In this document: piece by piece, positions 6,037 to 59,428 of the stretch
Layout: every line of letters begins with the position of its first letter
Numbering within the stretch: the first letter of the stretch is position 1
Source: an uncultured virus (IMG/VR IMGVR_UViG_3300017958_000005)
Lineage: Duplodnaviria; Heunggongvirae; Uroviricota; Caudoviricetes
Length of the DNA: 64,000 nucleotides
Direction: 5' to 3' (one strand)
Virus record (IMG/VR): IMGVR_UViG_3300017958_000005
Coordinates: 1-64,000 of that record
The notes under the pieces: model-generated
Seen by the model: the letters and a program-made list of their open reading frames with translations, nothing else
What the model was told of the DNA's origin: nothing
Database searches by the model: none
Position numbers and translations under genes: made by a program

Positions 6037-6045
6037 ATTATACCA
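6037..6045 (-). promoter_or_regulatory. Extended -10 promoter (TGGTATAAT) upstream of the holin
   Basis: Perfect TGnTATAAT on the minus strand in the intergenic gap, about 37 nt before the holin ATG. Confidence 0.65.
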
Positions 6046-6055
6046 AACAAGGAGG

Positions 6056-6364: not shown

Positions 6365-6385
6365 AATCTCTCCTTATACCCAATA

Positions 6386-10492: not shown

Positions 10493-10493
10493 G

Positions 10494-32615: not shown

Positions 32616-33920
32616 TTATACGACGATAGCAACTCTTTTTCGCTGTGGCAACCCCAAACCTGTTAAATGTGTGAACGCCCCCACAGCAGAGTCGACTTGG
32701 TCATCATGTGGCGCGGCCTCCGGGAACGCCGATAACTCATCAAGCCATTCTGTTAACCATGGGGCGCGTACACATCTGACGTTGCCGTTGGCAACAGCAG
32801 CAGCAAATGGCCGTGCGCGCGTAACCTTGTCTCCAGTCGAACGGATTCCAGCAAAATCATAGCCAGACAGCACATATCGAGCATACTGATCGACAAGGGC
32901 CTTCCCTGATGAACCCGGCTCTTGCTCCATGCGAATCGCAACATGCCTTCCGTCTTCGTACGCCGTTTGAGCGATCAGTTGTTCAACCTTCTCGCCCTTG
33001 ACCCTTGCTTTCTTTACATCAAGGATGTATGCGATGCCCTGATCGAACAGCATCAACGTACCCACAGTCCAGTCAGGGTCCGGGTTGGACTGTGATGGTT
33101 CGGTGGCAGCCAAGTCCCAGAATCGAACAGCCCGGGCAGCAGATGAAATCTCAGGGACCTCATGCTGATCGAGAAGAACAACATTTTCACGTTCAAAAAG
33201 ACTGCCAAGCGTAGTTGACCACCAATCACCTTCTTCGAGCCGGCGTCGCTCAACAGGGTCAAGCGCTTGAAGGGTCTGTCTGTAGGAAGCAGCGTCGATA
33301 CCCGGGTTGTCCGTCAACTTCGACGGAACGAAAATCCGGTTGTGTTCGAGACCTTCAACAATGAATCGTTGCCGCACCCAGTTGGGCGCCGGGTTGGAAG
33401 CAGCCCTCATCCGTAGTGGCACCTTGGACAGGGGGCCGTTTGCTGGACGACGCAAACGCGAGAACATGTAGCGGTAGTCCGATTCGCGAATCTCGGTGAC
33501 CTCGTCCATTCCGATAAATTGAAATTCAGCACCCTTATAACGCAAATAGTCCTGCTGATTGTTCAAATACCCGAAAGATATGCGTGCGCCAGACGGGAAA
33601 ACTGCCGTGTAGTTATTGGCGTTCCACCGAACGTCATCTTCGGCAGCAATCCAAGATTGGAAACGGTCCATGATTGCTCCGGGCAAAGCAAGGTCAGCGT
33701 AGGTGCGCCTAAACAGGATTGCGCTATACCCGGGCACATCGACATATTGAAGTGCCGACATCAAAAGGGCCGAACTTTTACCGCCACCGGCCGCTCCGCC
33801 AAACAGGGCCTCGAGAGCGTACGTACGCAAAAAGACCTTTTGCGTCAACGATGCGGACTCTGGACAGTACAGCGCTTCCTTCGGCTGCAAATAATCTAAA
33901 ACCTTTTGCCAATCTTCCAC
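32616..33920 (-). CDS. terL: Terminase large subunit
   Basis: Walker A LFGGAAGGGKS, Walker B FIGMDE, ASNP motif, nuclease RFWDLA...HDDQVDS. Confidence 0.95.
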   Translation of the reverse strand: MEDWQKVLDYLQPKEALYCPESASLTQKVFLRTYALEALFGGAAGGGKSSALLMSALQYVDVPGYSAILFRRTYADLALPGAIMDRFQSWIAAEDDVRWNANNYTAVFPSGARISFGYLNNQQDYLRYKGAEFQFIGMDEVTEIRESDYRYMFSRLRRPANGPLSKVPLRMRAASNPAPNWVRQRFIVEGLEHNRIFVPSKLTDNPGIDAASYRQTLQALDPVERRRLEEGDWWSTTLGSLFERENVVLLDQHEVPEISSAARAVRFWDLAATEPSQSNPDPDWTVGTLMLFDQGIAYILDVKKARVKGEKVEQLIAQTAYEDGRHVAIRMEQEPGSSGKALVDQYARYVLSGYDFAGIRSTGDKVTRARPFAAAVANGNVRCVRAPWLTEWLDELSAFPEAAPHDDQVDSAVGAFTHLTGLGLPQRKRVAIVV

Positions 33921-34178: not shown

Positions 34179-36164
34179 ATGGCATGGAACTCCTTTGAAA
34201 AGAAGTCACTCAACAACATTGAGTCGAAAGCCGCACGGGTGTCGGTCGGTGCGCCCATTGCCAACAACCCCAGTTACGCCGGAAAAGGTTACCGAGACCC
34301 TTGGGACATTGAACGTGCGTACAAAGAGGGGATGCAGAAAGTTGTCTGGGTATCGCGATGCATCGACGCGATTGCCGGCAACCAAGCGCGACTACCAGTA
34401 ATTCTTCGGCAAAACAATGATCCCGAAGGAAAGATCGTTACCAAAAAGAATCTTGGAAACGGCAGCATTCTCGACATCCTGAACACGAAGGCGAACGAAG
34501 GCGAAAACTCCTTCATCTTCCGTTACAGGCTTTCCGCCCAACTTCTGATGAGCACACGAGGTGCTTTCATTGAGAAGATTAGGGGGCGCGATGGTCGAAT
34601 TATCGGGCTGAACTTGCTTCCCCCTCAGTACACGTCACCAATTCCTGACCCGAGGCGCTTCGTTGCTGGCTATGAAGTGCTCATGCCTAACGGCGAGAAA
34701 ATCATCATGAAGCCAGATGATGTCATTTGGATTCGCCGTCCGCACCCCATTGACCCATACCTGTCGATGACTCCAATGGAATCAGCAGGTATCGCGATCG
34801 AAATCGAAAACCTTGCGAAACTTTATAACCGCAACTATCTCATCAACGATGGCCGACCGGGTGGTCTCCTTGTTCTCAAGGGAGAAATCGACGAGGATGA
34901 TAAAGATGAACTACGTAATCGTTTCCGAGGAAATCTTGGACGCACCGGCGCAACAACGGTAATCGCCGCTGATGATGGTGTTGACTACGTCGACACCTCG
35001 TCGAGCCCCCGCGATGCTGCTTACATTCAGATGCGGCAAATCACGAAAGAAGAGATTCTCGCCTCCTTCGGCGTGCCTGAATCGGTCATCGGTAATGCTG
35101 CGGGTCGAACATTCTCGAATGCTGCCGAGGAAATCCGAGTTTTCTGGATTGAGACGATGATGCCTCACTTGGAGCATCTTGCTCGAGGGCTGGACGAAGC
35201 AGACGAGAAGCATTATGTCGACTTCGACACCTCTGAAGTTCCGATCCTTGTGATTTACAAGCAGGAGCGGGAAAGATACCTGCTCGATGAACTCCAGCAA
35301 GGTCTCATCACCCCAAATGAATACCGCGAGGCAACCGGTCGGAAAAAGGTGGAATCAGAACTTGCCGATTCCATGTTGATGAATCCCAACCTCACGCCTG
35401 TCGGAAACACAGAAAAACCGATGCCCGGGCCAGAAGCGCAAATGGGTGGAGGGGCCCCCGGAATGCCGGGAGCGATGCCGGGAGCGATGCCCGGACAACC
35501 GGGAGAAACGCCAGCGGCAATGCCGCCGCAGCAGCCGGGCGCCGCACCGCTTGATCCAAACACCATGCAGGGCGCTATGGCGGCTGAGCAGGCTCCGATG
35601 GAAACAACTAACGTTGAGCCACCGGAAGGACAGTTGGCGGATCCGGCGTTCGGTAATGTGAATACCAAATCTGACATAGATGCCGATCTTGAGCGTTGGA
35701 CTCAAATCCTTGAGCGGTCACTTGAAAGGCTTGTTGAGCGACAGCAGCGAGTTGTGCTTGAAAAAGTAAGTGGTCAGAAAGCGCGAAAAGCACTTGCCGA
35801 GGGAACAATCGATCCGGACAGCGTAATGCCATTAGACGTCTGGACGAAGCAGTTGGAAGAAGACATTCTTCCTGTCTTGAACTCAATTATGAAGGACGGG
35901 CAGGGTTTTGATGTGAAGTCGGAAAATAACGACGACATGGTTGTTCATGCCAACGCTGCACTCAGTCGCATTAAAACTGTGGTTTCTGATACCCGCACGT
36001 TTTTGGATATTGAGATCAATAAGTGTATGGCCATTCCAGACGGTGAATTGCGCCTGAAAGTGCTTCGTTCTGCGCTTACAGGGCATTTTGCCTATCTGAT
36101 GGGCAAGAAGGTTAACGAGATTGCGACCGCAGAGGCTCGCAGGGCTTGGAAATTGGCCAAGTAG
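34179..36164 (+). CDS. Portal protein, HK97 family, with Pro-rich linker and helical C-terminal extension
   Basis: VSRCIDAIA, NDGRPGGLL, EILASFGVP...G...TFSNA and GLITPNEYR motifs. Confidence 0.95.
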   Translation: MAWNSFEKKSLNNIESKAARVSVGAPIANNPSYAGKGYRDPWDIERAYKEGMQKVVWVSRCIDAIAGNQARLPVILRQNNDPEGKIVTKKNLGNGSILDILNTKANEGENSFIFRYRLSAQLLMSTRGAFIEKIRGRDGRIIGLNLLPPQYTSPIPDPRRFVAGYEVLMPNGEKIIMKPDDVIWIRRPHPIDPYLSMTPMESAGIAIEIENLAKLYNRNYLINDGRPGGLLVLKGEIDEDDKDELRNRFRGNLGRTGATTVIAADDGVDYVDTSSSPRDAAYIQMRQITKEEILASFGVPESVIGNAAGRTFSNAAEEIRVFWIETMMPHLEHLARGLDEADEKHYVDFDTSEVPILVIYKQERERYLLDELQQGLITPNEYREATGRKKVESELADSMLMNPNLTPVGNTEKPMPGPEAQMGGGAPGMPGAMPGAMPGQPGETPAAMPPQQPGAAPLDPNTMQGAMAAEQAPMETTNVEPPEGQLADPAFGNVNTKSDIDADLERWTQILERSLERLVERQQRVVLEKVSGQKARKALAEGTIDPDSVMPLDVWTKQLEEDILPVLNSIMKDGQGFDVKSENNDDMVVHANAALSRIKTVVSDTRTFLDIEINKCMAIPDGELRLKVLRSALTGHFAYLMGKKVNEIATAEARRAWKLAK

Positions 36165-36256: not shown

Positions 36257-37957
36257 GTGTCGAAGGAGCGAAAAATGCCCACTAACGAACTTACCGATCT
36301 CGAAATCAAAGCAGCGCCAGCCGGCCAGATGACCGTAAATCAGGCAAAAGGCATCGTCGAGGCTTTCGTTGCAGGAATTGGCAACAAAGACTCTGTGGGC
36401 GATATTTGCGCCTCGGGAGCGTTCAACGCGAGCCTTAAGCGCCGCAAGCCACGCGTGGTGTGGGGACACAACTGGAATGACCCAATCGGTAAAGTGCTTG
36501 AAATCTATGAGGTTCCGGCTACCGACCCCCGCCTTCCGGAAAAGATGAAACGTGCCGGAATCGGTGGACTTTACGCAAAAGTTCAGTTCAACCTCAACAG
36601 TGAAAAAGGACGCGAAGCGTTCGCAAATGTCCAATTTTTCGGTTTAGAGCAAGAATGGTCAATCGGATACAAAACGCTCGACGCCATTTTCGATCCCGCC
36701 AAGCAAGCGAATGTTCTCAAAGAAGTCGAACTTTACGAAGTCAGCCCAGTTCTTCATGGCGCAAACCAGTTGACGGGAACAATTTCCGTAAAAGCAGCGA
36801 AGCAGAAACTGCGCGACCCCAAGGGTGGGCTGACCGCCGCTGGGCGACGTCACTTCAACCAGACCGAAGGATCGAACCTCAAGCCGGGCGTTAAAGGTCC
36901 TGCTGATACGCCGCAAAAAATGCGTCGGAAAGGCTCGTTTCTGACTCGCTTCTTCACAAACCCATCCGGGCCAATGAAAAAGCCGGACGGCAAGCCGACT
37001 CGCCTCGCACTTTCAGCGGCTGCATGGGGCGAACCAGTTCCACAAAACCGCAGTGACGCAGCCAAACTCGCCGCAAAAGGACGTCGACTCCTTGAACGCT
37101 ACGAGAATGCGAAGAAAAAAGATGCTGATTGGGACGAGGAGCAAATCGACTATACGGTCTTTGAGAACTTCTTCGCCGAGGATAACCCCGAGTTCAAAAC
37201 GCTCGAAACTGACGAGGGATTCTCTATTAACGATATTGAAATCGACGAGGTCGACGAAAAGGGCCACTACATGATGCGTATGGTTCCACGCAGAGCCCCA
37301 GAAAGCCCCCGCCGTGACATTTTCGCAGAAGGCGAAGCGCAATCCCTCAATGCGGAGAAGCGAAACGCCCTTGAAATGGAAATTGCTTCACGAACCCAGA
37401 TGCCGATCAAACTCATTGAGGCGACGGAAAACTTGGCTGTCTTTGCTAAGAGCAAGCCAGATGGTACTAAGAAGTTTTACCGCCTTCCATACCACTGGGA
37501 CACTGAAACCCAGCAATACATGTTTGGCAAGCCAGAGCGCGTCGAGCCAGCGATGATGTGGCGCCCACGGAAGCCACGCGTCGTCGTCCCATCACAAATG
37601 CCGTCAATGCCGGTTGAAGTAAAGCCTCAAGGTGAAGGGCGAGGCGAGTACAACAACCCTGTAACCGTGAAGTTTGAAGAAGATGAGAAAAGCGCAATCG
37701 ATCAAATGATGGAGTGGCTTGATGAATCTGAAGATGTCGAAATGAAGGAAGATGCTGTTCGCTTCATCATCGAATGCGACATGGAAGATGCCTTCAACGT
37801 GAAATCTGCATTCGACCCAATCTTCGATTACTACAAAGTTGACGTCGAAGTTACTGAAGATGGAATTGAAGTTCTGTCAGAGGCTTCTGACGACTTCTTG
37901 AATGCCATTGCGGTTGCTTCCAAATCGATCTTCGGGGAGACCGAAAAAAAAGTCTGA
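36257..37957 (+). CDS. Prohead maturation protease (HK97/S78-like) with C-terminal extensions (DUF6321-like)
   Basis: GNKDSVGD...GAF...VWGHNWNDPIG...EWSIGY...LYEVSPVLHGAN, followed by KGGLTAAGR...RKGSFLTRF...ALSAAAWG. Confidence 0.92.
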   Translation: MSKERKMPTNELTDLEIKAAPAGQMTVNQAKGIVEAFVAGIGNKDSVGDICASGAFNASLKRRKPRVVWGHNWNDPIGKVLEIYEVPATDPRLPEKMKRAGIGGLYAKVQFNLNSEKGREAFANVQFFGLEQEWSIGYKTLDAIFDPAKQANVLKEVELYEVSPVLHGANQLTGTISVKAAKQKLRDPKGGLTAAGRRHFNQTEGSNLKPGVKGPADTPQKMRRKGSFLTRFFTNPSGPMKKPDGKPTRLALSAAAWGEPVPQNRSDAAKLAAKGRRLLERYENAKKKDADWDEEQIDYTVFENFFAEDNPEFKTLETDEGFSINDIEIDEVDEKGHYMMRMVPRRAPESPRRDIFAEGEAQSLNAEKRNALEMEIASRTQMPIKLIEATENLAVFAKSKPDGTKKFYRLPYHWDTETQQYMFGKPERVEPAMMWRPRKPRVVVPSQMPSMPVEVKPQGEGRGEYNNPVTVKFEEDEKSAIDQMMEWLDESEDVEMKEDAVRFIIECDMEDAFNVKSAFDPIFDYYKVDVEVTEDGIEVLSEASDDFLNAIAVASKSIFGETEKKV

Positions 37958-37983
37958 GGGGTCGCGCTCAAAGTTTCGACCCC
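37944..37983 (+). promoter_or_regulatory. Programmed -1 ribosomal frameshift signal (A8 slippery site plus stem-loop)
   Basis: GAA AAA AAA GTC TGA; 6-nt spacer; GGGGTCG-12 nt-CGACCCC stem; the -1 frame is open into the 38104 ORF. Confidence 0.8.
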
Positions 37984-40827
37984 AACGCTGTAGATGGTGA
38001 CGAGGACGGTCTCGTTCAGGAGGGCACCCCCTTCGAGCGTCCAGCCACACCCAATGTCGCTCGCGCCCTTAGGAGCGCCACAAGTTCCGCCGGATTCGAC
38101 GGGATGAAACGCGACGATATGGCGAAAATGCGTTCAGAAGAATTCAACGAGGCGGTACAGAAACAGTTCGAAAAAGCAAAGGAACTGAGGGCCGAACTGT
38201 ACGAGAAATATCCAAAACTGGATGCGATGCTTGCAGCGCAGCAGATTGCGACCGTCACTTCAGTTCGCACCGGTCAGGACATCCGTGAAGAAGATGTCAT
38301 GGAAGAACTTCAAGATCTGCTGAAGATCGATAGCGACGAAATCGACGACCTAGCAGACATCATCGCCAGTACACGATTCAGCCAAGACCTCCTCGAAGCG
38401 GACGAAGCGCAAATGTCAATTTCTCGCGCTCGAGATTTCGTTGAGGAAACAACTGAGGACATGGGGAACATCTCGCTCGCAATCACCGACATGGAAGAAG
38501 ACGTAGAAACCGCTCTTGACCGAATCAAGAAAGAACTTGACGGCATGGAGATTTCTACAGGGCAATTCAAAGATCTTGCTGAATCCGATGACCGTGCCGA
38601 CGCAACCCGCAGGCTACTCACTGATTTGATTGACGACCGAGAAGAACTTGAGCAACAGATTCCTCAAATGGGCTACCTTCTTGAAGATTACGACGAGGTC
38701 AAGGAGATGCGCGATCAACTCAAAGACCTCGTAGATGAACTCGAAGAACTTTCAAGTGGACCTGTTGAATCTAGGGAGCGGGGACGAGATCTGCTTAAGC
38801 AAGGTTTCCTGAACGCTGACTCACTAAACACGGGGTACGACGAAGACAAGTTTCGTGAGATGCTTGGAAAGTTCCGCAAGACAAAGACTTACGAGCGTGC
38901 CACCGAAGGGATGACAATCGTCCGCAAGCGCAGTATTCCAAAATCTGAACCCGTTGCTGACAGCGACGCCGCAAGGGACATTCATGGACTTGGAAAGCGC
39001 AGCATCATCAACATCCCGGAAACGGGCGTTCAGGTCATGCTCAACGATGATCAACGTGGCGATGCTCGTCGCACCATCGCTGGTCTCAGGTCATCAACAC
39101 AAAATCCTGATGCTTTCGAGAAGATGGACGAGTGGCTTTCCGGTAAATCGCCCAATATTTCGCGAGATCAGCATGAGGAGATTTTCAACGAGTTCGCAGA
39201 TGCCGCCAACCGGGATTTGGATCTTGGAGACCTCCGACACGTCCGTGACGCGATCAACTTGGCGGCAATGTCTGAAGATGGAAAATGGAAAACGCCAAAG
39301 GCTGAGGGTGGATTCGATGGAAGACCAAAACCCGCTGGTCTGACTAAGCGCCAAAGAGCAGATTTGTTGGAGTGGGGGCAAAACGACGCAGATGACATGC
39401 TGCGTAGACGCTTCGTTGGTCTGAAAGAAGATGATGTGTCCCCCAAGGGGTGGATGATGCTCCGCAACGATTTTGGCGGTGGCATGCGTTCAGCAACTGG
39501 CGGTGGAAGCATCAATGAAACGCGTGACACCGGCAAGCGAGCACAGCGAGGTAGGCCGGTTGGCGCTGGTGATGAGAAGAAATTCAAGGGCAAACCGTTC
39601 TCGGAAGTAAAACCTGACAATTGGGATCAGTTGACTGCCGATGAGAGGTTTGACGAACTTCTTACGAATTTGCACCCTTCTAAGACCGGTCTTCGAGAAG
39701 TTGACTTCAACCGTTTGAGAAAAGAACTGGTGCTGGAGTCTCTCCGCTCAGATCAGGAAAGCGAGCGTGCTCGACGTCGGGCTCAGCGTCGGGAAGCGCT
39801 GGCGAACGTCAGGGTAAGCAAACCAACTGAGCGCCCTGCTGCTCGACCTGCTCCAGTTGCTACAACCGCTGAACAAGCCAAGAAGCAGCGTCAGCAGGAA
39901 GTCACGAAAATCGGCAACCGAGTTGCCCGTATTTCGTCAAATATTGACAAGCAGTTCGAGAGAGACGAAGAACGTGGTTTGGACCCCAACGATGAGTCCC
40001 ATAGAGATATTTGGGCGTCACTTACCGACATTTTGGAAGATAGCGATGAGTTAACCCTGTCTCAAGCAGAATCCATCGCTGCAACCCTTGACGACTACCT
40101 AGAAGAAGCATCCGGAGCAGATCTTACTGCAACCGAATCAAACAGTGTCCAAAATGCTCAGGTTCTTCGCGCAGATATGGGCGATCTGATTGACAGATAT
40201 AGGCTTGACCCGAATATCAGCAAGGGTGACAGTTCAGCGGCGGTCCGAATTGGCGGCGAAGGTGAAGAAGATGTCGCCACCACCGGCCGCTCCGCCGCAC
40301 GATTCCTTTCCGAAGGCGGAATGCGATCATTTACCTCATACAAGCCTTCCCCAACCGTCCAAGAATACGCAGAAGCACGCAGAAGCCAAGGGCTACGCAG
40401 TCAACAGGCTGGACGAACCGTAATCAATGAGGAAGCGACATTCTTCAAGGCAATCGAAGATTCTCTGGCAAAAGAAATCAGAGAAGCACGTAACGCCAAC
40501 GATTCACGAACGGTTAAGGGGCTTGAACTACTTCAGCGAATTATGCGTCGTCAAGATTCAGGCAAAGTCTCGGATCGTCGAACCAACGCCGGCGCACTTT
40601 GGGTGACGGCAGACGAAGCCGATGAGATTTTGGACGCGATGATGTTTGCCCTTGACCGACAAATGGAAACAGGCGGATCTAGGGTGGACCTGTATGCACA
40701 ATTTGTCGAAATTATCTCGGCTGCCGCAATGGGGACATTCATCAGCAAGACGACCTCGGAGGTTTCGTCACGAACCCAAGCACGAACGAACAGTCAAGGA
40801 CGACAAGTAAATATCCCGAATCAGTAG
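37951..40827 (+). CDS. Large head-associated protein, probably made as a -1 frameshift fusion to the protease
   Basis: The track ORF 38104..40827 extends upstream in frame to 37951. The extension encodes the shared tag FDPNAVDGDEDGLVQEGTPFERPA. Confidence 0.75.
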   Translation, partial: SLRGRAQSFDPNAVDGDEDGLVQEGTPFERPATPNVARALRSATSSAGFDGMKRDDMAKMRSEEFNEAVQKQFEKAKELRAELYEKYPKLDAMLAAQQIATVTSVRTGQDIREEDVMEELQDLLKIDSDEIDDLADIIASTRFSQDLLEADEAQMSISRARDFVEETTEDMGNISLAITDMEEDVETALDRIKKELDGMEISTGQFKDLAESDDRADATRRLLTDLIDDREELEQQIPQMGYLLEDYDEVKEMRDQLKDLVDELEELSSGPVESRERGRDLLKQGFLNADSLNTGYDEDKFREMLGKFRKTKTYERATEGMTIVRKRSIPKSEPVADSDAARDIHGLGKRSIINIPETGVQVMLNDDQRGDARRTIAGLRSSTQNPDAFEKMDEWLSGKSPNISRDQHEEIFNEFADAANRDLDLGDLRHVRDAINLAAMSEDGKWKTPKAEGGFDGRPKPAGLTKRQRADLLEWGQNDADDMLRRRFVGLKEDDVSPKGWMMLRNDFGGGMRSATGGGSINETRDTGKRAQRGRPVGAGDEKKFKGKPFSEVKPDNWDQLTADERFDELLTNLHPSKTGLREVDFNRLRKELVLESLRSDQESERARRRAQRREALANVRVSKPTERPAARPAPVATTAEQAKKQRQQEVTKIGNRVARISSNIDKQFERDEERGLDPNDESHRDIWASLTDILEDSDELTLSQAESIAATLDDYLEEASGADLTATESNSVQNAQVLRADMGDLIDRYRLDPNISKGDSSAAVRIGGEGEEDVATTGRSAARFLSEGGMRSFTSYKPSPTVQEYAEARRSQGLRSQQAGRTVINEEATFFKAIEDSLAKEIREARNANDSRTVKGLELLQRIMRRQDSGKVSDRRTNAGALWVTADEADEILDAMMFALDRQMETGGSRVDLYAQFVEIISAAAMGTFISKTTSEVSSRTQARTNSQGRQVNIPNQ

Positions 40828-49531: not shown

Positions 49532-49748
49532 CAAACGAGTCACCACCGGAGATGACGGCATCCGTTTTCAGCCTAGCCAGACGTACTTGAAGTACATGGA
49601 AACCAGCGCTGTTCGTGAACTGCTTGATAAAGACCCCGACGTTGAACCGTACCTCCAGCAGATCTTTACTGCGCTGCCACAAGTCAGTGAAGTAATCGAT
49701 CTTTACAAAAACACCTACATCATGGCGCTGCGTGAGGTTGAAGAATGA
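49524..49748 (+). CDS. Small protein (74 aa) coupled to the giant gene
   Basis: GTG at 49524 after GGAG; overlaps the stop of the 2342-aa ORF and the start of the next ORF. Confidence 0.65.
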   Translation: MDSKRVTTGDDGIRFQPSQTYLKYMETSAVRELLDKDPDVEPYLQQIFTALPQVSEVIDLYKNTYIMALREVEE

Positions 49749-52234
49749 GAGCAGTACTAATTGGTCAAGTTAGAAAAAACCCGGTCTACTACGACCTAGA
49801 CGGAAAAGAAACTGACGCGTTCGTTGTCGATAAAGAAAACAACGTTGTTCCGGTCAACGTTATCTCCCTCATTGGCAAAGGCCTCATAGAACCCATCAAC
49901 GACTCCGACTTCACTGACTTCTTTTGGAATGGTTCCAAAGAGAGCAGCAAAAGATGGGAAAACATTTTTATCCATCGCGTTCAAGATGTGCCAGACAAAC
50001 TGTTGCGTGGAGTTCAAATGCTTACCACTCCACCAAAAAAGAAGAATCCGGCGCGATCGAAAGCCGTTGAGGAAAAAGCGCTGAGAGCAGATGCCTACAA
50101 AGCGCTTGTTGAGAGCGAGCAGCACGAGAAAGCACTGGGTCGAAGTCTAAATCGATTCGGTGGAAGGGCTACTGCGGGTGTTCGTGGATTCGTTCGTAAT
50201 GCCCGATGGGACCCTGACGCATTGGATGCTGACGGTGATGGTTGGGTTCAGGAAGGAACACAGTTCGCTCGTCGGATAACCGGTGCAAATGTGACGAAAC
50301 CGAATAAGCCTTCTCCACCCGAAGTCAACGTTGAGCACTATCGCGCGCTTAGAAGTCAACAAAGGCGCAATTATCAGAACTATCTAAGCGGATCGATCAG
50401 TGAACGACTTGCAAAACGTAAAGCGCGATTTTACATCGACCGCATGGAGAAAGTTGACCAAATGATCGAAAGCCGTTTCTCTGACGGCAAGCGAATCAAG
50501 ACCGTTGGCGATATGCGTAAAGCGTTTGAACGTGCTCATCCGGGTTTCATTACAGGTGACAGCACTGCCGAATACTTGAATAGCGCAGATCCTGATGAGG
50601 AACTAAAAGACACGGTTAGGGAACATGGCTACATGTTTCTTTTGGCACTTATGTCGAATCCGGACCTAACGAAAGCAAACTGGAAATTCACTAAAGTTGA
50701 TCCATCCGAAGAGTTTTCTGGCGCCGCTGCTTTCAAAGGGCCGAACAAAATCGACAGACTTGGAAAAGCACGAGATTTGCCTCGAAACCGAAAAATGCTT
50801 ATCGAGATCTCCTACAAAGATGAATTTCCCGAAGCGAAATTTAGAGATGCGCAACAAATGGATGCTCGTTTACGTTTGCAACTTGAGAACACCAAGATTA
50901 TTGCGTCCATATTGAGGTCTGATTTGCCAGACGATGAGAAGCAGGAGTTTGTTCGTCGTTTTCATGCTCGCTCAACAGCATTCCACGAAATGACACATGG
51001 AAGCATGTATTTTAAAGCGTTCACAGATTCATTGGCGTTAGTCGGTTTACAGCCTGACGAAAAAACCGACGCCGATGCGATCTTGGATGAGGTGTATACA
51101 GCAATATCAGATTTAGCACCAGAAAAAGCATCCCTTCTTGCCGATCAATTCTGGGCAGAAACTATTGCCATGCCAGTTGCATTAGTCAACCGTGTCTTGA
51201 ATTATCTTATGCTTCGTTCCAGTATGGATCCAAGAGCGAAATCAACCATGCTTGATGCGATCAATGCGGATCTCACGGATGGTCAACCCAATGCCCCTGA
51301 ACCATTGCGTGTCTCAAAGAAACTCTCCGCGTTTCTTAATGACAAGCAAATCCCGAAAAATCTTGCTAAGCCAAACGATCCACAAGATACAACCTTCGAA
51401 GAAGGTGACGCTTTATCAATCAACTCGACTATGAACATACTTGCGCATCTGGTCAACGACTTGGGTTCTGGAAATGGTTACCAGAATAGGCTTCCGTGGG
51501 CTGGACGGAAGGCAGTTAACTTTGGTAAGAGCGAAGATGACATTGCCCTGAATTGGCCGCTCCTCTTGGAACATGGAATTCCAAATACAGACCTTGATTC
51601 AGAAGATGTAAAAACATTGCTTATGGCAAATATTCGCATTGGAGAAGTAATCTCGGAAGTGCTTCAATCAGGTAATCCAGACAGCATCAGGAATTTTGCT
51701 GCTATTGCGGCAAGTAACCAAACACAAATTGCTCCCGCTGTTTGGTTGGGCCTTACTGGGAATATCGCAAATCAAAGCATGCGTGAAGCATACGTTCAAT
51801 CCAGTATTCGAGGGGGAGTATCGCAACTTTGGGAAAGCGTTAAAGCAAGCGGCACGGACCGTGATCGAGGAAGAATCATTGACACCCTCGCCTTACTCTT
51901 GGGCGTATGGGACGACCTGACCCCACAGCAACGCGATCTTGCTAAGAACTATGCCGCAATGTCGGGTGGCGGTCTTTATGCTTCGTACGCTGGATATATC
52001 ACTAACTTCACGCAGTTGGGTCGAGTTTTCGATGGACTCAACTATGAACTGCTCGCCGAACTTGGCCCCTTAGCCCTATTCGGCAATGTGGCAGAAATGG
52101 CGGATGAACAGGCTGGCGGGATTCGCGAACTTGACCCATCTGAACCAACATATGAAGCATTGCAGAAATTGATTTCGTGGCTGTGGCCCGAACTCCCCTT
52201 CGCGTTAAACGGTAAAGAGAAGGCAAAGTCATGA
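49745..52234 (+). CDS. Large head-region protein with HExxH metallopeptidase motif (829 aa)
   Basis: AFHEMTHG; shared tag WDPDALDADGDGWVQEGT. Confidence 0.8.
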   Translation: MRAVLIGQVRKNPVYYDLDGKETDAFVVDKENNVVPVNVISLIGKGLIEPINDSDFTDFFWNGSKESSKRWENIFIHRVQDVPDKLLRGVQMLTTPPKKKNPARSKAVEEKALRADAYKALVESEQHEKALGRSLNRFGGRATAGVRGFVRNARWDPDALDADGDGWVQEGTQFARRITGANVTKPNKPSPPEVNVEHYRALRSQQRRNYQNYLSGSISERLAKRKARFYIDRMEKVDQMIESRFSDGKRIKTVGDMRKAFERAHPGFITGDSTAEYLNSADPDEELKDTVREHGYMFLLALMSNPDLTKANWKFTKVDPSEEFSGAAAFKGPNKIDRLGKARDLPRNRKMLIEISYKDEFPEAKFRDAQQMDARLRLQLENTKIIASILRSDLPDDEKQEFVRRFHARSTAFHEMTHGSMYFKAFTDSLALVGLQPDEKTDADAILDEVYTAISDLAPEKASLLADQFWAETIAMPVALVNRVLNYLMLRSSMDPRAKSTMLDAINADLTDGQPNAPEPLRVSKKLSAFLNDKQIPKNLAKPNDPQDTTFEEGDALSINSTMNILAHLVNDLGSGNGYQNRLPWAGRKAVNFGKSEDDIALNWPLLLEHGIPNTDLDSEDVKTLLMANIRIGEVISEVLQSGNPDSIRNFAAIAASNQTQIAPAVWLGLTGNIANQSMREAYVQSSIRGGVSQLWESVKASGTDRDRGRIIDTLALLLGVWDDLTPQQRDLAKNYAAMSGGGLYASYAGYITNFTQLGRVFDGLNYELLAELGPLALFGNVAEMADEQAGGIRELDPSEPTYEALQKLISWLWPELPFALNGKEKAKS

Positions 52235-53238: not shown

Positions 53239-55193
53239 TGGCCACTTCATACATTTACGAAAAAGAAGTTGATTGTGAAGCGTGTCCAAGTGTTCGCGTG
53301 AAAAGAACGATCATCGCCAAACTCGAACAGAAAGAAAACGTTCGTTACCTCCGGCAAACTCGCGCAAATCGTGAAGAACTCGTGCAATTTAAAGCACTTT
53401 CTAAACGAAACGGGAATATTCGCCAGTATGACGTCAAACGAGTTGGCGCAATCGGGTCAAGTAGCCGTCTGGGGCAAGCAGCCCAAGCAATCGGAACCAT
53501 TGCCACCCCCGGAAATATTTCCCCTTACCGCAGCCCAATCAGGTCAGGAATTGCTCGTGCCCTGACTCCCGGCAAACCCGGTGGTATGCGTGGTGTACGT
53601 CGCCGGGGACGAACCTCTAGGTGTCCAGAAGGATTCCAGTACGGTGGTCGTTTTACTGACAATGAATTCTCGACATGTGGGCAACAGTTGTTCGATGTTC
53701 CATCTCCCCTTGGCGCAACAATTCGCGCAATTCGTGAGCAGCAAAGAGCCGCCGCTCGAGGACCAGCCCAACCGCGAACTGCCGCTACGCCAATTGCCTC
53801 ACAAGGAACAGTGAATCGTGACCGTGCCGTTCGTGCGGCACAAATTCCGCGCGTGTCAGCCACCACGAAGAAAACCGATCGCGATAAGAGCACCGCTGAA
53901 GTAATCAAAACGATGGGCAAGCCAGACATCAACGCCACTCGCCTCGTCCGACGTGACGGATATGTTCTCGAGCCAGTCGTGACACCCCGAGTTCTTCGAA
54001 CCATCCCAGACAACCGAGACATGGTTGATGCAACATTTATTCTGACTGCCAAGAATCGCGCAGACCTTGGCGACCAAGAACTTGGGCTTCTTTCAAATAC
54101 AGGCGTAACCAACGTCACGTATGTTTTTCAAGACGGATCTTACGTTCAGATTCGAAAAGTTCGTTCATTGACCCGTGGTGAGCGACGCAAGTTGGGTCGC
54201 ACCGTGAACGCGGCGATGAAAGTTGATAACGAAAGTGACCCTCTTGCACGCCTGAAATACGTTTCAGATGAGACCGGTGATGGCATCGATCTCGTTGAGA
54301 GCCTACGAGGCGGTCGCACGATTCAAAAAATCCTTTCCGGGAAAGGCAAAGTTTCGAGATCGAAAGATTCAGAAACTGTCGATCCGCTTGGAGACGCCGC
54401 AAAAACAGTTCGAGACGGAGGAGACATCTCCTCTATCCGCCCAACAATCCTGCAAGAAGCGATTGGTAAAACGAATCTCTTCAAAAAGACAGGTACTGAC
54501 AAGTACAAGGCTGCCGATGGCAGGGTTTACACACTGCGCACTTCGGGCAAGTCAGGCGAACACATTACGCAAGCCATGTCATCCGCAGTCCAAGACCACC
54601 TCGGACTCAACGGTGTTGATATCGCATTTGTCGGTAAGGGATCATCGAAGCGCAAGTACTTGTCCATGACCCCGGAATCCGAGATCGTCGACGGTGCGCT
54701 TTCCAAAGAGAAGTCATTCAATGACCTCGATGTGGACGACGTGGCAAAACTTTTCGTATCTGACATGGTTATGGATATAGAAAGTCGCGCCAGCAACACG
54801 GTTGCGATCTTCGACAAGGGGGATGAGTCGTCGCTCATTGCGACATTTGCCCAAAGTGAACTCGTGGATCTTTCGGATGCCAAAATTCGTGAACGTACCC
54901 AGAAAAAGATTCGCGACATGAAAGCATTGCAACCCGACAGCATTTACAGTAAATACTATAAGAGTTTGAAGGCTGAACAGCGCCGACAAATGCAAGAAGA
55001 GATCGACAAACTCATTGCGAAAGCACGCGAATTTAACTTCACCAAATTCCGCGACAAACTCTACGCAGATGGAGAACTCTCCTCAGCGGAGAAGACACAC
55101 TTGAACATTATTGCTAAAATTATTAAGACACGTATTGATGTACTTACCGACAGTAGGGAAGTTTTGATGCGTGTTCTCGGAGGTCAGAAGTGA
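53238..55193 (+). CDS. Head-region protein with degenerate HipA/PI3K-like kinase C-terminus (651 aa)
   Basis: RCPEGFQYGGRFTD tag; GRVYTLR...AVQDHLGL...LFVSDMVMDIESRASNT. Confidence 0.7.
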   Translation: MATSYIYEKEVDCEACPSVRVKRTIIAKLEQKENVRYLRQTRANREELVQFKALSKRNGNIRQYDVKRVGAIGSSSRLGQAAQAIGTIATPGNISPYRSPIRSGIARALTPGKPGGMRGVRRRGRTSRCPEGFQYGGRFTDNEFSTCGQQLFDVPSPLGATIRAIREQQRAAARGPAQPRTAATPIASQGTVNRDRAVRAAQIPRVSATTKKTDRDKSTAEVIKTMGKPDINATRLVRRDGYVLEPVVTPRVLRTIPDNRDMVDATFILTAKNRADLGDQELGLLSNTGVTNVTYVFQDGSYVQIRKVRSLTRGERRKLGRTVNAAMKVDNESDPLARLKYVSDETGDGIDLVESLRGGRTIQKILSGKGKVSRSKDSETVDPLGDAAKTVRDGGDISSIRPTILQEAIGKTNLFKKTGTDKYKAADGRVYTLRTSGKSGEHITQAMSSAVQDHLGLNGVDIAFVGKGSSKRKYLSMTPESEIVDGALSKEKSFNDLDVDDVAKLFVSDMVMDIESRASNTVAIFDKGDESSLIATFAQSELVDLSDAKIRERTQKKIRDMKALQPDSIYSKYYKSLKAEQRRQMQEEIDKLIAKAREFNFTKFRDKLYADGELSSAEKTHLNIIAKIIKTRIDVLTDSREVLMRVLGGQK

Positions 55194-58100
55194 AACAGTA
55201 CGCTTTAGTAAAGGACATGGTTAACGGCTCGTCTTACTATGGCGTTGTCATCCGTGAAAATGGGCTTACCGAATGCAAAGGTGTTTCAGGTGTAGGCGAA
55301 AAGTGGGCGGAATCTTACAACAACGCCGAAACTAAGTCCCTTGACGATGGTCTTCCCTATGGTGTGAAAATCGGAGAATTCCATGCGTTGACTCAAAGCG
55401 AGGAAATCCTTGTCGAACACATGCTTGACGGCAACACTGTTCGTTTCCCAGACAGAACTCAACTGAAGCAACTGTCTTTCCACAAAACAGACGCTAATTC
55501 AAGCCTTCCTGCCGTTTCAAACACGCCGCTTTCAGCATTTTTGATGGATGACCTGCAAACCGCAGTTGACTACAAGATTCGCGCTTTCCTCTCCGACTCT
55601 GCGAGAGCGTCAGTGATGCTGAAGTCACGTCTTGAAAGATACGGCATCAGCGACACAACTGTCGGCTTCAAGTCTGCAAGCAATAACAGTTTCCTGAATG
55701 AAGACATGTCCAGTGTGGCTCGTGGACATGGCAATCTTCGACGTGCGCTGTTGGATATCAGAGACGCAAAATCAACCTTCCTAGAAAATCATCCGGGATA
55801 TCAGGTTGGAATCGAGGAAAAAGCAATCGGGCGTAGCCTCGGTCGAGGTGCGCGCATTGGCAGACGTGCGGCTCGCGCCTTCAAGCCATACGACCCGAAC
55901 GCAATCGATGGCGACATGGACGGAATTGTTCAAGAAGGAACACCTTGGGAACGTCCAGCAGTCAGAGTTGGTGGACGTGGCGTTCGCTTAACCCCAACGC
56001 AGCAGCGGGCAAGAAGCGAAATTGCTCCAGATGTCGGGATGCGTAGCCGGACGGGTGATGGAGAAAGCATTCAGGACAGGCTTACAGCGGCGCGTAACAG
56101 TCGACAGCAAAAACTTGCCGATCGCATGCGTGAAATGGGTTTCGACGATGACAATCAAAAAGAAATCAATGACTGGCTGAGAACCTTTAACCCGGAAGAT
56201 TTCGAATATACCGACATTGATGATCTCGAGATTGAAGGTCTGACCTCGCGCCGTGGCTCATCCAGCCCTACCGGCAGCATTTTTGGTCAGCGCCGTTACT
56301 CAAGCGAGGATTGGATCGAAGGCCAACTCGATGAGGGGCCGCTTGCTGGTTCTTTCTTTGAACTTCGAACCGCACGCGATTACACCGAAAGCAACTTTAA
56401 TGATCCGGGTGAAACGCTCGGTGGTAATGATGAGTTGACTGTTTACACGCCTGATGGTGTCGTTCTCAGTTTCGAAAACGAAACATGGGAAGACTCTTTG
56501 GACCTTATCAATGTCCGCGCACCGGGCGGTGATGGCCTTCGGTCAAGAAGTCGACGCGGGGATGACGAGGACTACCCTCGTATCGACCCCGATCTCATCA
56601 ACAGGTTGCGAAATGAACGATTTGTTCCCGAGACAAGTCGTTCTGGTCGTGCACGTCAAAACCGCATCATTAACACCCCGAACGCTGATGGTGGTCCACC
56701 ACGTCGTGCAGTCCGGGAGCGCTCTGGCCGAGTTGTCCCAGAACCACCGGCACGTGATCGGAGCGGACTGCGCAGCAGGACCGGTGACACCGCCAACAGA
56801 AATGCCGAATTGACCGGTGTAGGAACAACCGTCCCCAAAGCCATGAAGGCAAACAGGAAGTTCTTCCAAACACTTGCTGCCAACGGATTCGTTTGGGACG
56901 ACAAGCCTGACACCAGTGGCAGAGTTAGGATTTTCCTACCCGACCGCATGTCCGACTGGACACTTGACCAGCCCGACAGCGTCCGTAATCAGTGGGGCAA
57001 ATTCAAACCAGCCCGCGAAAATCAGGCAGCCGGCTTCATTCACGTACACCCCGGCAAGGACACGCCACAACGTCCTGAAAACATGGCGAAACGTTTCCTG
57101 CGCACCATTTTTGGCGACACCGCATGGGACGACATGGAAGCAAACGCCAAGAAACCCGGCGATAAGCGCGGCACTGGTCGAATCGGAGTAATTCCTTCAA
57201 CTAGCACCGGCGCGACTGGATTGCGTTCCGCAACGTCTCGTGCTCGCACTCGTACTGCCTCAACGGAAAGAGTAGCAACGCCCACCACAACCGGACGAAG
57301 CCTCCGCTCGGGCCAACTGCGCAAACTTGGAAAGCCCGGTGTCGCAAGAGGTGAAAGCGACGGAAAAATCTGGGAACAATTGGATGACAACCAACGCGAT
57401 TTGTTCAAGCAATTTGCACAGGCGCGTGAAGTTCAGTTGATGCGGAATCTCACTCAGGATGCGAGAATGCGAAAGTTCCGCAACAAGATGATAGATGATG
57501 GCGATTTCGACGAAATCGACGAGGACGGCAACGTTGTGCGGAATTACAACAAACCGCTTGCTCGAAACATCATCCCATTGGCGCAACGAGAAATTGACGA
57601 TCTGCTTCGCGATGAAAAAATCACGGAGGAAACCCACGTAAAGTGGCAGAAAACTTTGGACGACATCAAGACGTTGCGCAACATGAAGGAAAGCGACAAC
57701 TACGAAGCGCTGGAGCACCTGCATCCGGCAAGTCGTGCCAAGATCATCAAGGACGCTCGGGGTGAAGATTCAAGCATTCCGGGTGTTCGTGCACTGAAGG
57801 CTGATGGTCCGTCAACGTTCTTCGGTGATCAAGCCCGTACAGCCAGTGGTCGTAGCGCCGGTAAGAATCGGAAACCGAAAAGGAAGCGGCCTTTCGCTGA
57901 CCGCATTATCACACCGAATGTTGAACGACTACAGCGTCGGGCGGCTCGTCGTCAACGAGCACAAGCGATTCGTCGGGGAGGCCTTGTTCGCGGTCAAGAG
58001 GCTGACGTTTCTGCAACGCAAAATGCTCGACGCAAACTGGCTCGTCAACTTCGTCGAGCACGACGCAGATTTAAAGGAGAACGCGACGAAAGAGCGATCC

Positions 58101-59035
58101 GTAAAATCTTTGACGAAAAGAAGAAAAATCACCCATTGGCCCGTACAAAAGAAGGCGCTCCAGAAGTCAATGACAAGTACGTTGATTACCTTGCCTTCGT
58201 CGGATCAAATATTGATAAACGTCAAAAAGGTGAACTCTCATCAGACGTTCGCGACAGCGTCCTTCGAGACCTTTGGCAAAACGGAGGATTCAACCAACGC
58301 CCCGAACTCATTTCTGCGGACGAGATGCAGGCCCTCAGCGATGCGGGTTGGCAGGTTCTACACCGAGGAGTTGACAGACTGGGAACTCAAGCACAAGCAA
58401 ACACAGATTCGTACAAGGAAGACTTGGACCGTTTCACGCCCGGCGAAACTAATCTACGAGCACATGGCGTTGGCGAATACTGGGCTGCTCCGGGGAGTGG
58501 GCACTGGGGAGGTTACGGTTCTGGCATGCTTGCCTTCATTGACCCAGAAGGCAAAAGGATCCAGAGGAATAAACTCAAGGGATTATCAGATGAATCTTGG
58601 CCAGCAATGAAGGAAATCCAAGATCTCATCGATGAACTAGGTGATGGAGTTGCACAAGGTGAAGACCCTGCAAACTTCGTTGATCAAGTAATGGAACGAC
58701 TCCGCTCCAATGGTCTCGAAGGTCTCCTCGAAAAAGATAATGAAATCATCCAAGTGGCTCGCCAATTGCTCGACAGGTACAAGGGCATGACCCCGAATGA
58801 CACAAAGCGTGAAAATACGTGGAATGCCATTCAATATATGCTCGGCCAATCGAGGCAGGCGCAATGGTCAGGCGGAGAGGGATATTGGGCTCCAATCCTC
58901 GGCTACGACTACGTCACCTCAAACGAGGGCGTGTTCCTTGTTCACAACCGAGGCAGTGTTGCTGTGCTTGACGTCGCCGAACCGCTCAGCGGCGGAGCAG
59001 CAAAGACAATTGTAGATGGCCTCAATGAAGGGTAA
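55190..59035 (+). CDS. Large multidomain head-region protein with C-terminal ART-like domain (1281 aa)
   Basis: Tag YDPNAIDGDMDGIVQEGT; six G[LM]RS-like linkers; LHRGV...HGVGEYWA...LGYD...VHNRG. Confidence 0.8.
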   Translation: MKQYALVKDMVNGSSYYGVVIRENGLTECKGVSGVGEKWAESYNNAETKSLDDGLPYGVKIGEFHALTQSEEILVEHMLDGNTVRFPDRTQLKQLSFHKTDANSSLPAVSNTPLSAFLMDDLQTAVDYKIRAFLSDSARASVMLKSRLERYGISDTTVGFKSASNNSFLNEDMSSVARGHGNLRRALLDIRDAKSTFLENHPGYQVGIEEKAIGRSLGRGARIGRRAARAFKPYDPNAIDGDMDGIVQEGTPWERPAVRVGGRGVRLTPTQQRARSEIAPDVGMRSRTGDGESIQDRLTAARNSRQQKLADRMREMGFDDDNQKEINDWLRTFNPEDFEYTDIDDLEIEGLTSRRGSSSPTGSIFGQRRYSSEDWIEGQLDEGPLAGSFFELRTARDYTESNFNDPGETLGGNDELTVYTPDGVVLSFENETWEDSLDLINVRAPGGDGLRSRSRRGDDEDYPRIDPDLINRLRNERFVPETSRSGRARQNRIINTPNADGGPPRRAVRERSGRVVPEPPARDRSGLRSRTGDTANRNAELTGVGTTVPKAMKANRKFFQTLAANGFVWDDKPDTSGRVRIFLPDRMSDWTLDQPDSVRNQWGKFKPARENQAAGFIHVHPGKDTPQRPENMAKRFLRTIFGDTAWDDMEANAKKPGDKRGTGRIGVIPSTSTGATGLRSATSRARTRTASTERVATPTTTGRSLRSGQLRKLGKPGVARGESDGKIWEQLDDNQRDLFKQFAQAREVQLMRNLTQDARMRKFRNKMIDDGDFDEIDEDGNVVRNYNKPLARNIIPLAQREIDDLLRDEKITEETHVKWQKTLDDIKTLRNMKESDNYEALEHLHPASRAKIIKDARGEDSSIPGVRALKADGPSTFFGDQARTASGRSAGKNRKPKRKRPFADRIITPNVERLQRRAARRQRAQAIRRGGLVRGQEADVSATQNARRKLARQLRRARRRFKGERDERAIRKIFDEKKKNHPLARTKEGAPEVNDKYVDYLAFVGSNIDKRQKGELSSDVRDSVLRDLWQNGGFNQRPELISADEMQALSDAGWQVLHRGVDRLGTQAQANTDSYKEDLDRFTPGETNLRAHGVGEYWAAPGSGHWGGYGSGMLAFIDPEGKRIQRNKLKGLSDESWPAMKEIQDLIDELGDGVAQGEDPANFVDQVMERLRSNGLEGLLEKDNEIIQVARQLLDRYKGMTPNDTKRENTWNAIQYMLGQSRQAQWSGGEGYWAPILGYDYVTSNEGVFLVHNRGSVAVLDVAEPLSGGAAKTIVDGLNEG

Positions 59036-59044
59036 ACTATTGAC

Positions 59045-59428
59045 ATGAGTGATACAACTAACGAATGGGGCGAAGATCTGCAAGAGGTAGAGCGTCGACA
59101 GCAATTCACCGACCGGTTTAACGAGTTGATGGACTTGACCGACTACCCGCCATTTTCAATCAATCTTGAAAAACACAACGAGTATCGCGAAGAAGTCATG
59201 GCCTACAGCGTGAAAATCTCTGAACAAATTCGTGAAAGCGACGCAATCGAAGATCGACCATTCTCAACACTTATGGCGAAATGGGAAGATGACCTTGACG
59301 AGGCCAAACTCTACAAACAGCGTTATGGTAGGGATTTTGTTGGCGCCCAGAAAGCGGCCGCAAAGAATGACGGCATCTCCATGCGTGACGTAAAGCCCAT
59401 CGGACCACCATCAGCATATAAAGACTGA
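59045..59428 (+). CDS. Small acidic helical protein (127 aa)
   Basis: ATG 6 nt after TAAACT; TGATG overlap with the next gene. Confidence 0.7.
   Translation: MSDTTNEWGEDLQEVERRQQFTDRFNELMDLTDYPPFSINLEKHNEYREEVMAYSVKISEQIRESDAIEDRPFSTLMAKWEDDLDEAKLYKQRYGRDFVGAQKAAAKNDGISMRDVKPIGPPSAYKD

Follow-up and report, generated by a model that had tools for sequence, protein, structure and literature searches.

In a 64,000-nucleotide stretch of DNA from an uncultured tailed phage (Caudoviricetes), comprising positions 1 to 64,000 of the 78,820-base IMG/VR record IMGVR_UViG_3300017958_000005 (CheckV completeness about 49%; salt-marsh metagenomes) and referred to below as the window, the gene for the prohead serine protease ends on a run of eight adenines (A8), at which a programmed -1 ribosomal frameshift probably generates two products, a 560-residue protease and a fusion of about 1,517 residues. 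The fusion would carry, behind the protease, a short tag and then p907, a 907-residue protein whose open reading frame (ORF) lies in the -1 frame. A shift joining the protease to the tag-led protein had been proposed from the letters of the window alone (hereafter the sequence-only reading), and comparison with related phages now backs the proposal strongly, through relatives in which both parts form one ORF, a slippery heptamer at the homologous spot, a hairpin that usually follows it, and a second lineage split in the same manner. Given that the slippery site is kept at the same spot in related phages, the junction looks like a conserved recoding switch rather than an error. The predicted size of the fusion (559 residues of protease plus 958 from the -1 frame) agrees with the roughly 1,520 residues first estimated.

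The 3' end of the protease gene reads GAA AAA AAA GTC TGA, with the A8 run at 37944-37951 and the TGA stop at 37955-37957, and this run is the longest of only six A/T runs of at least seven bases in the whole 64 kb. Inside it lies the heptamer A_AAA_AAA, followed by a 6-nucleotide spacer and a hairpin with a 7-base-pair stem, and all of these elements are present as the sequence-only reading had described them (Table 1). Folded alone, the hairpin has a free energy of -14.1 kcal/mol, and the 38 nucleotides after the slippery site fall in the lowest 1.5% (rank 0.015) when set against all in-frame positions of the same ORF; the z-score of the hairpin varies with the flank that is folded, from -2.8 on 30 nucleotides (3 of 200 shuffles as good) through -1.9 on 39 and -1.4 on 147 to -0.34 on 59. 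A search of positions 37500-38500 against Rfam gave no match at E<=1. The Shine-Dalgarno-like hexamer GGGGAG ahead of the heptamer is a possible upstream stimulator; relatives have GGTGGT-type strings at this place, and their glycine codons there are free of synonymous variation. The -1 frame is open from 37891, reads ...KKSLRGRAQSFDPNAVDGDEDGLVQEGTPFERPATPNVARALRSATSSAGFDG and then methionine at 38104, holds no ATG, GTG or TTG before that position, and runs on into the 38104 ORF, as had been claimed. The 958 codons read from 37951 onwards (p907ext) are homologous to in-frame sequence of the relatives. The ATG at 38104 has no good Shine-Dalgarno sequence, a trait shared by many genes of the window.

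The upstream gene matches Pfam Peptidase_S78 (PF04586; E 4e-12, 47.0 bits against a curated cut-off of 21, residues 29-176), DUF6321 (E 2e-28, above the curated cut-off) and PHROG 80, the head maturation protease family (E 9e-32). His65 (in WGHN) and Ser129 (in EWSIGY), which we take to be the catalytic residues, are invariant in 13 protease sequences, two isolate phages included, and no PDB sequence match to the protease was found. The ORF list gives this gene as 36257..37957, with 566 residues from GTG 36257; however, ATG 36275, with the Shine-Dalgarno sequence GAAGGAG ahead of it, is the likely true start and yields the 560 residues used here. The protease gene lies between the portal and capsid genes in a head module ordered large terminase (TerL), portal, protease, major capsid protein (MCP).

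Relatives of the protease, examined as 80 kept of 342 in IMG/VR and 80 kept of 129 in metagenome contigs, make the case for a fusion. In the nearest of them a single ORF of 1,640-1,750 residues comprises the protease, the tag and a p907 homologue, and in 14 loci read in detail the protease frame continues free of stops into the tag, as in locus L010 (...ASKSLFGGGSKKALRSLRRVNARFDPNAIDGDEDGLVQEGTPFERPATP...). Among 54 loci with a match to the protease C-terminus, a short 0-frame ORF is clear only in the window lineage (586 codons stop to stop) and in the pair L062/L065 (454 codons), the remainder measuring 802 to more than 2,573 codons or being cut by contig ends, with one of 241 codons. The open -1 frame of the window (37951 to 40824) is collinear with the post-protease part of the 1,642-1,650-residue ORFs of L011, L013 and L014, at 44-46% identity over residues 340-957 (E 1e-153 to 1e-161), and it matches L010, L043, L038 and L005 more weakly. 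The join falls exactly in a pair of lysines, FGETEKK/SLRG in the window (the slash marking the join) against FGGGSKKALRS in L010. Since the shifted reading aligns without an extra residue, the sole difference in frame is one base inside the A-run. The proposed translation of the startless stretch that bears the tag is likewise strongly backed by the homologous sequence that relatives have in frame. The cargo part differs among the relatives' fusions, which include UvrD helicase, sigma-70 region 4 (sigma70_r4) and KTSC domains. By comparison, then, the one-gene state is shown as ancestral, with the fusion as the product of the ancestral gene. After the near-identical contigs, the next relatives of the window are unsplit, at about 71% identity; one locus (L016) is 90% identical but ends within the protease, and a metagenome scan for closer relatives found none with a complete junction in the range from about 72% to 100% identity.

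The slippery site itself extends well beyond the window. The 166 loci collected reduce to 116 distinct ones, of which 52 carry a tag recognised by a regular expression, and the counts that follow concern these 52 and leave out the other 64. Protease and tag are fused in the 0 frame in 48 of them and split, with the tag in the -1 frame, in four (two variants of the window lineage, L062 and L065). An in-frame X_XXY_YYZ heptamer stands 11-17 codons before the tag in 49, further upstream in two, and is missing from one (L038); the types found at the junction are A_AAA_AAA, G_GGA_AAA, C_CCA_AAA, G_GGA_AAG, T_TTT_TTT and C_CCT_TTT. Elsewhere in these ORFs the background is 127 in-frame heptamers per 27,465 codon positions (0.46%), and there glycine-lysine is never spelled G_GGA_AAA (0 of 178) and lysine-lysine seldom A_AAA_AAA (7 of 132). 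At the slippery codons synonymous pair diversity drops to 0.0, compared with 0.3-0.85 in the flanking codons, both in a subfamily of 23 distinct sequences and in the window's own subfamily of 15, and the residue preceding the heptamer is variable (G, L, P, A, S, E or R) with a codon whose third base always equals X. The heptamer is moreover specific to the protease junction, standing upstream of 48 of 51 junction tags, whereas in other genes only 5 of 27 tags have one, in no case of the same type or position. In 10 of 20 loci the 38 nucleotides after the site have a rank of 0.05 or lower against in-ORF controls (0.015 in the window, 0.051 in L062), no locus ranking above 0.38, and seven sequences of one subfamily share a 7-base-pair consensus hairpin with one compensatory pair (CG in four, GC in three). 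Relatives thus keep the slippery heptamer and usually the hairpin, and homologues neither use an independent start nor lack an A-run or other slippery run, which is the reverse of the pattern that the sequence-only reading had named as telling against a frameshift.

In the 48 fused loci a -1 slip reaches a stop within 1-12 codons, for example at KKSA* (L010), KKR* (L055) or GKS* (L054). The window has the opposite polarity, the short protease being the default product and the fusion requiring the shift. The same reverse arrangement is found in L062/L065, which are 99.6% identical to each other and belong to a different tag subfamily: CGA AAA AAA is followed by a 0-frame stop 7 codons on, a 6-nucleotide spacer and a GCGCCC/GGGCGC hairpin, and the -1 frame comprises the tag and 557 codons. 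L065 is the only close relative of L062 found. Among 75 distinct tag contexts in 221 loci, only the window and L062/L065 junctions are without an upstream start codon. Use of the heptamer as an internal ribosome-binding site was considered and rejected, the relatives being without a start codon after the heptamer. As a separate observation, the L050-L146 subfamily has a synonymous diversity of 0.0-0.09 in three glycine codons (GGT GGT GGG type) before the heptamer and low values in the hairpin arms, and these codons may form an upstream stimulator.

Several observations weigh against a programmed ribosomal frameshift. The heptamer is not universal, being absent from L038 and L145, and when 26 loci without a regular-expression tag were read by eye a junction heptamer was seen in 15, none in 10 and an unclear case in one; the sampling is also incomplete, with 64 of the 116 distinct loci standing outside the tag-based counts. 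The significance of the hairpin depends on the control chosen (z from -0.3 to -2.2 with composition-preserving shuffles of 45-59 nucleotides), its 3' arm encodes the conserved residues FDP, and RNAalifold, applied to 11 sequences of the window's subfamily, returned no consensus pairs, since neither the sequence nor the offset of the hairpins is constant. Only A8 is seen in the RNA-library contigs, and contigs cannot reveal translation. Further, all known contigs of the window lineage share at least 99.88% identity and its next relatives are unsplit, so that on these sequences the split could be recent; the A-run, ancestrally A7, is a hotspot for one-base insertions; and it is possible that ATG 38104 starts p907 independently.

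These last points bear on the alternative that survives best, namely that a one-base insertion in the ancestral A7 simply broke the fusion gene, after which p907, if still made, would start at ATG 38104 and lack the tag, and any slipping would be incidental. Homopolymers are the commonest sites of frameshift mutation, the near-identity of the lineage copies means that the change may be young, an intact tag would still be expected soon after such an event, and an ATG is available 51 codons downstream. However, the site was a conserved slippery heptamer, with a hairpin, before any insertion, and shifting should therefore outlast the change; moreover, L062/L065 acquired this polarity independently. 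A single codon separates the run from the 0-frame stop and the hairpin is well placed, no good Shine-Dalgarno sequence precedes 38104, and a tagless p907 would lose a module kept by every relative. The lineage is also widespread in its habitat, 13 DNA runs holding all sampled words of it, although these runs possibly stem from one campaign and possibly include the source of the window. On balance a merely broken gene is unlikely, a programmed shift remaining the better account of the junction.

Whether the run is truly eight bases long bears on the two other alternatives. Four near-identical IMG/VR contigs supply eight loci, which match the window at 99.88-99.99% (1-5 mismatches), and the 401-nucleotide junction is identical in 11 of 11 loci tested, these being the near-identical IMG/VR contigs together with three metagenome contigs. 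Logan contigs of one DNA run (X1) and three RNA-library runs (X14, X15 and X16) span A8 with no gaps and no other letters. The Logan data are contigs and not raw reads, contigs drop rare variants, and RNA-library contigs may contain DNA; in addition, the salt-marsh samples are not fully independent, as they may stem from a single campaign and may include the source. The sequence-only reading had singled out A8 against A9 as the point on which its claim could founder, and A8 is no homopolymer error in any of these loci or in the DNA and RNA-library contigs. It has to be asked, nonetheless, whether RNA polymerase adds one A at A8 in some transcripts, so that the fusion would be read in one frame with no shift by the ribosome. 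Runs of 7-9 adenines are known slippage sites in bacteria (Atkins et al., 2016), and an A9 mRNA would specify the same protein with one extra lysine. However, the contigs of the three RNA-library runs show A8 and no insertion; a dominant A9 mRNA is excluded by this, and a minority A9 form is still possible, contigs being blind to rare variants. Most relatives, moreover, use G_GGA_AAA, C_CCA_AAA or C_CCT_TTT, which are classic ribosomal heptamers whose runs of only 3-4 identical bases are too short for stuttering, so that a ribosomal shift is to be preferred, and the conserved spacing to the hairpin also suits a ribosomal mechanism; transcriptional slippage is accordingly improbable as the source of the fusion. 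A sequencing or assembly error that hides a single ORF is the least probable of all and very unlikely in itself, for although homopolymer lengths can be miscalled and the relatives are in frame, the junction is identical in all 11 loci tested, contigs of one DNA and three RNA-library runs agree on A8, and relatives with A7 are assembled in frame in some cases (L010, L055) and out of frame in another (L062), run length thus not being miscalled systematically.

The preferred reading, a programmed -1 ribosomal frameshift, may be cast as a model. Most ribosomes would read GAA AAA AAA GTC TGA and release the short protease, while a fraction would pause on the heptamer, held by the hairpin 6 nucleotides downstream, slip back by one base and continue across the tag and the 907-residue ORF to give the protease-tag-p907 fusion. 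A controlled stoichiometry of the cargo, as put forward in the sequence-only reading, would be a conceivable result. After head assembly the protease would probably cut the fusion, and other tagged proteins, at sites flanking the tag, so that the tag is cut out. Elsewhere in the family the 0 frame would usually give the fusion and the shift would give a short protease ending 1-12 codons on. With the cassette present in either polarity, every member would then make both forms, and a one-base change in the slippery run would swap the default form, as appears to have happened at least twice (in the window lineage and in L062/L065). If the efficiency of shifting is high, such a swap would cost little, which would account for the existence of both polarities. 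A broader version of this model, which we regard as being about evenly balanced between true and false, is that a very abundant aquatic phage clade possesses a conserved two-way recoding switch, in which one locus supplies free protease and protease-tethered cargo, shifting is efficient enough for a one-base change in the run to do no more than swap the default product, so that both polarities persist, and the tag is a general head-loading signal, removable by the protease, for injected effectors such as zeta-toxin kinases, ADP-ribosyltransferases and helicases.

The tag on which this broader version depends is about 45 residues long, with a repeated motif of about 25 residues; the full module consists of (E)KALGRSL, a basic linker and then FDPNAxDGDxDGxVQEGTPFERP. 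Its occurrence in three other proteins of the window (p829, p1281 and p534), asserted by the sequence-only reading, is borne out, and by BLASTP the tag is the only sequence common to the tag-bearing window proteins. A profile of the module matches 882 protein clusters at E<=0.001 and 205 at E<=1e-10. Among 33 tag-profile proteins that were scanned, six are S78 protease fusions with the tag at residues of about 450-630, and other tag-bearing proteins comprise a Zeta_toxin protein with an ADP-ribosyltransferase domain and proteins with DUF3626, RNase_T, kinase and UvrD helicase domains. As a rule the tag lies inside the protein, either 150-250 residues from the N-terminus or immediately behind the protease, and it is often found twice per protein; in P0121, P0124, P0125, P0128, P0138 and P0154 two tags often lie near either end of an HExxH-containing region, which suggests that they bracket a metallopeptidase-like unit. 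Single contigs of relatives (L173/L174, L205, L206 and L196, L211, L177) hold three or four separate tag genes, like the window. Several tagged proteins per phage seem to be the rule. The tag is probably a removable head-loading or docking signal. A complex prediction of the tag with the capsid protein scored 0.00 against a mark of 0.32, and nothing follows from it about binding. The tagged p534 carries two DUF3721-like CxGxH...W..C motifs, the tag and a Zeta_toxin/AAA_33 kinase-like domain (59428-61032), an effector-like architecture beside the capsid gene.

A second motif accompanies the tag. The tetrapeptide [GA][LM]RS, most often in the form G-L/M-R-S-x-T/Q/S, is found 13 times among the 5,944 residues of p907ext, p2342, p829, p1281 and p534 and twice among the 11,196 residues of 22 other ORFs, and none of 2,000 shuffles reached 13 (mean 0.57, maximum 5). 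One copy lies 20-40 residues after each tag, and in the window ALRS is 39 residues past the join, while in relatives ALRS stands directly at the join and the motif copies align between p907 relatives. Four G[LM]RS motifs are found in p907 itself, in addition to the ALRS of the extension. This enrichment makes the [GA][LM]RS sites candidate cleavage sites of the prohead protease. By contrast, the protease site that the sequence-only reading had placed at the junction, EKK/SL, finds no support, as it does not recur, and [GA][LM]RS is the recurrent motif in its stead. A 1,382-residue ORF on the minus strand (15094-19242) contains GMRSQTSG and two looser [GA][LM]RS-like copies, and may encode another processed virion protein. 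As to the downstream partner, p907 is helical and acidic with a conserved C-terminal domain of about 145 residues, and it gave no Pfam or PHROG family, no match to an isolate phage and no PDB sequence match. An AlphaFold2 model of its last 370 residues (mean predicted local distance difference test score 74.6) is mostly helical with a small alpha/beta C-terminal domain, and matched nothing in PDB or BFVD at E<=0.001. Its role may be that of cargo or of a scaffold- or core-like protein.

In phages, programmed frameshifts are well established for tail chaperones and a few capsid genes, and among bacterial cases the closest parallel is the Escherichia coli dnaX gene, which encodes tau and gamma. 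There, an upstream stimulator acts at about 10 nucleotides from an A-rich X_XXY_YYZ heptamer. As in the window, a stem-loop follows that heptamer by a few bases, and in the common polarity of the phage family the likeness extends to the outcome, the shift leading to an early stop and the long and short proteins sharing their N-terminal part. A possible Shine-Dalgarno-like string lies upstream in the window too, but it is unproven and closer (5 nucleotides). The two systems differ in that dnaX encodes a polymerase subunit and not a phage head protease, and in that the polarity of the window is reversed, the shift lengthening the product. The dnaX case is named with its 1:1 ratio by Atkins et al. 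(2016). The same review describes retroviral Gag-Pro-Pol and totivirus Gag-Pol, in which a minority of ribosomes shift at the end of an ORF to give a protease-containing fusion that enters the particle at a set ratio and later processes itself (Atkins et al., 2016). This is the logic proposed for the window, although the window belongs to a double-stranded DNA tailed phage with an HK97-type head, its protease is the upstream partner and not part of the extension, and there is no homology.

Among phage structural genes, the known frameshifts are the tail assembly chaperone G/GT, the T3/T7 capsid proteins 10A/10B, and the capsids of Lactobacillus phage A2 and Listeria phage PSA (Atkins et al., 2016). 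They resemble the proposed system in that a late structural gene is recoded into two related products in fixed ratio, but none is at a prohead protease or joins a protease to internal or ejected proteins. In herpesvirus UL26/UL26.5 and phage lambda C/Nu3, a maturation protease fused to an internal head protein enters the procapsid and cleaves itself, and a second product shares sequence with it. The difference is that separate in-frame starts, and no frameshift, are used in these systems, and that the scaffold partner is known there, whereas the role of p907 is unassigned. The C-terminal tail of the HK97 protease reportedly acts as a targeting sequence. Other signals of this kind, described in the P1 paper, are those of the T4 internal proteins, whose peptide is removed by the prohead protease, and the N-terminal signal of P1 DarB. 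The tag of the window is no member of the T4-type capsid targeting sequences, which are short, N-terminal and end at L/I-x-E; it is internal or follows the protease, differs in sequence, includes an acidic loop of DxDxDG-like type and has [GA][LM]RS as its flanking motif, yet it may work like one of them.

The tagged proteins also recall the polyvalent proteins, which are large, multidomain and effector-like, are encoded beside head genes and are presumed to be packaged, with MuF and portal domains as handles to the head (Iyer et al., 2017). DUF3721 and Zeta_toxin domains are present in p534, and UvrD, sigma70_r4 and KTSC domains in the fusions of the relatives, whereas p907 has no recognised domain; the text of Iyer et al. 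(2017) contains the word "protease" once and "frameshift" not at all. In Gordonia phage DalanDe, a cultured phage, gp27 (5674-10575; 4,902 nucleotides), annotated as "capsid maturation protease", has its S78 match near the C-terminal end (locus 9001-9570); the extra domains in this case sit on the opposite side of the protease, and the annotation records no recoding. A capsid-protease fusion is found in Rhodococcus phage Jflix2. The sequence-only reading had judged a frameshift between protease and cargo to be unusual, and this stands insofar as no description of recoding at a prohead protease was found in the literature searched, which did not extend to subscription papers and supplements. 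The word "prohead" is absent from the first 300,000 characters of Atkins et al. (2016), the available passages on PRFect are likewise silent on prohead-protease recoding, and no paper mentioning "DUF6321" was found. However, the arrangement is no oddity of this phage, being the minority polarity of a cassette found across the family.

If the frameshift is real, it would show how a large environmental phage group sets the ratio of free to linked protease, and the presence of one signal in both polarities would amount to a natural experiment on the co-evolution of frameshift efficiency and gene architecture. The tag and the candidate cleavage motif would make the internal or ejected proteome of uncultured phages predictable and could be used to load foreign proteins into heads. 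Were the two-way switch to hold, phages would have their own counterpart of retroviral Gag-Pro-Pol. In annotation the consequence is practical, since gene callers break up or shorten these genes and overlook the startless tag.

Table 1. Positions in the window of the recoding site, the tag copies, the motif-bearing ORFs and the head genes.
Feature	Position	Strand	Basis
Prohead serine protease gene, 0 frame (S78 domain, DUF6321, conserved C-terminal domain)	36275..37957	+	Pfam, PHROG, Shine-Dalgarno sequence
Shine-Dalgarno-like hexamer GGGGAG, ending 5 nucleotides ahead of the heptamer; possible upstream stimulator	37934..37939	+	sequence
Slippery heptamer A_AAA_AAA (0-frame codons AAA AAA), inside A8	37945..37951	+	sequence; heptamer at homologous spot in relatives
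6-nucleotide spacer GTCTGA, holding the 0-frame stop TGA	37952..37957	+	sequence; spacing in L062/L065 also 6 nucleotides
Stem-loop: 7-base-pair GC-rich stem GGGGTCG (37958-64)/CGACCCC (37977-83) and small inner helix	37958..37983	+	folding
Startless -1 stretch, 51 codons, predicted to be read only after the shift; tag core FDPNAVDGDEDGLVQEGTPFERPA at 37975-38046, ALRS at 38065-38076	37951..38103	+	aligns residue for residue with in-frame sequence of relatives
907-residue ORF (p907), -1 frame relative to protease; C-terminal two thirds of the predicted fusion	38104..40827	+	ORF list
Tag copy in p829 (ORF 49745..52234)	50207..50278	+	sequence
Tag copy in p1281 (ORF 55190..59035)	55889..55960	+	sequence
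Tag copy in p534 (ORF 59428..61032; DUF3721 and Zeta_toxin domains)	60094..60165	+	sequence, Pfam
ORFs holding the 13 [GA][LM]RS sites	37951-40827, 42503-49531, 49745-52234, 55190-59035, 59428-61032		
TerL gene	32616-33920	-	head module context
Portal protein gene	34179..36164	+	Pfam Phage_portal, E 3e-48
HK97-fold MCP gene, with N-terminal delta-like region of about 100 residues	61184..62500	+	Pfam Phage_capsid, E 1e-46, residues 159-431

The protease and MCP genes are separated by about 23 kb of large ORFs (907, 520, 2,342, 829, 211, 651, 1,281, 127 and 534 residues), which together were described as without family match. The 520-residue protein (40917-42479) has N-terminal cysteine clusters and long runs of aspartate and glutamate, is without family match, and is conceivable as an extremely acidic partner for the basic linkers of the tags. 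A scan of species genomes for a host returned two contigs from metagenome-assembled genomes of different phyla, probably mis-binned phage DNA, and one capsid relative is labelled as coming from a Pontimonas metagenome-assembled genome, which is too thin for naming a host. The capsid protein has at least 4,698 relatives at E<=1e-20 among 8,000 candidates, the best 120 being 74-100% identical, and from these sequence matches the clade is judged to be very abundant in aquatic metagenomes. Conservation of the capsid protein (61184-62497) far exceeds that of the cargo or of the protease C-terminus. At residues 86-93 or so, at the end of the helical N-terminal region of about 100 residues, it carries GEGLREA, which resembles the [GA][LM]R motif and could mark the point at which the delta domain is cleaved.

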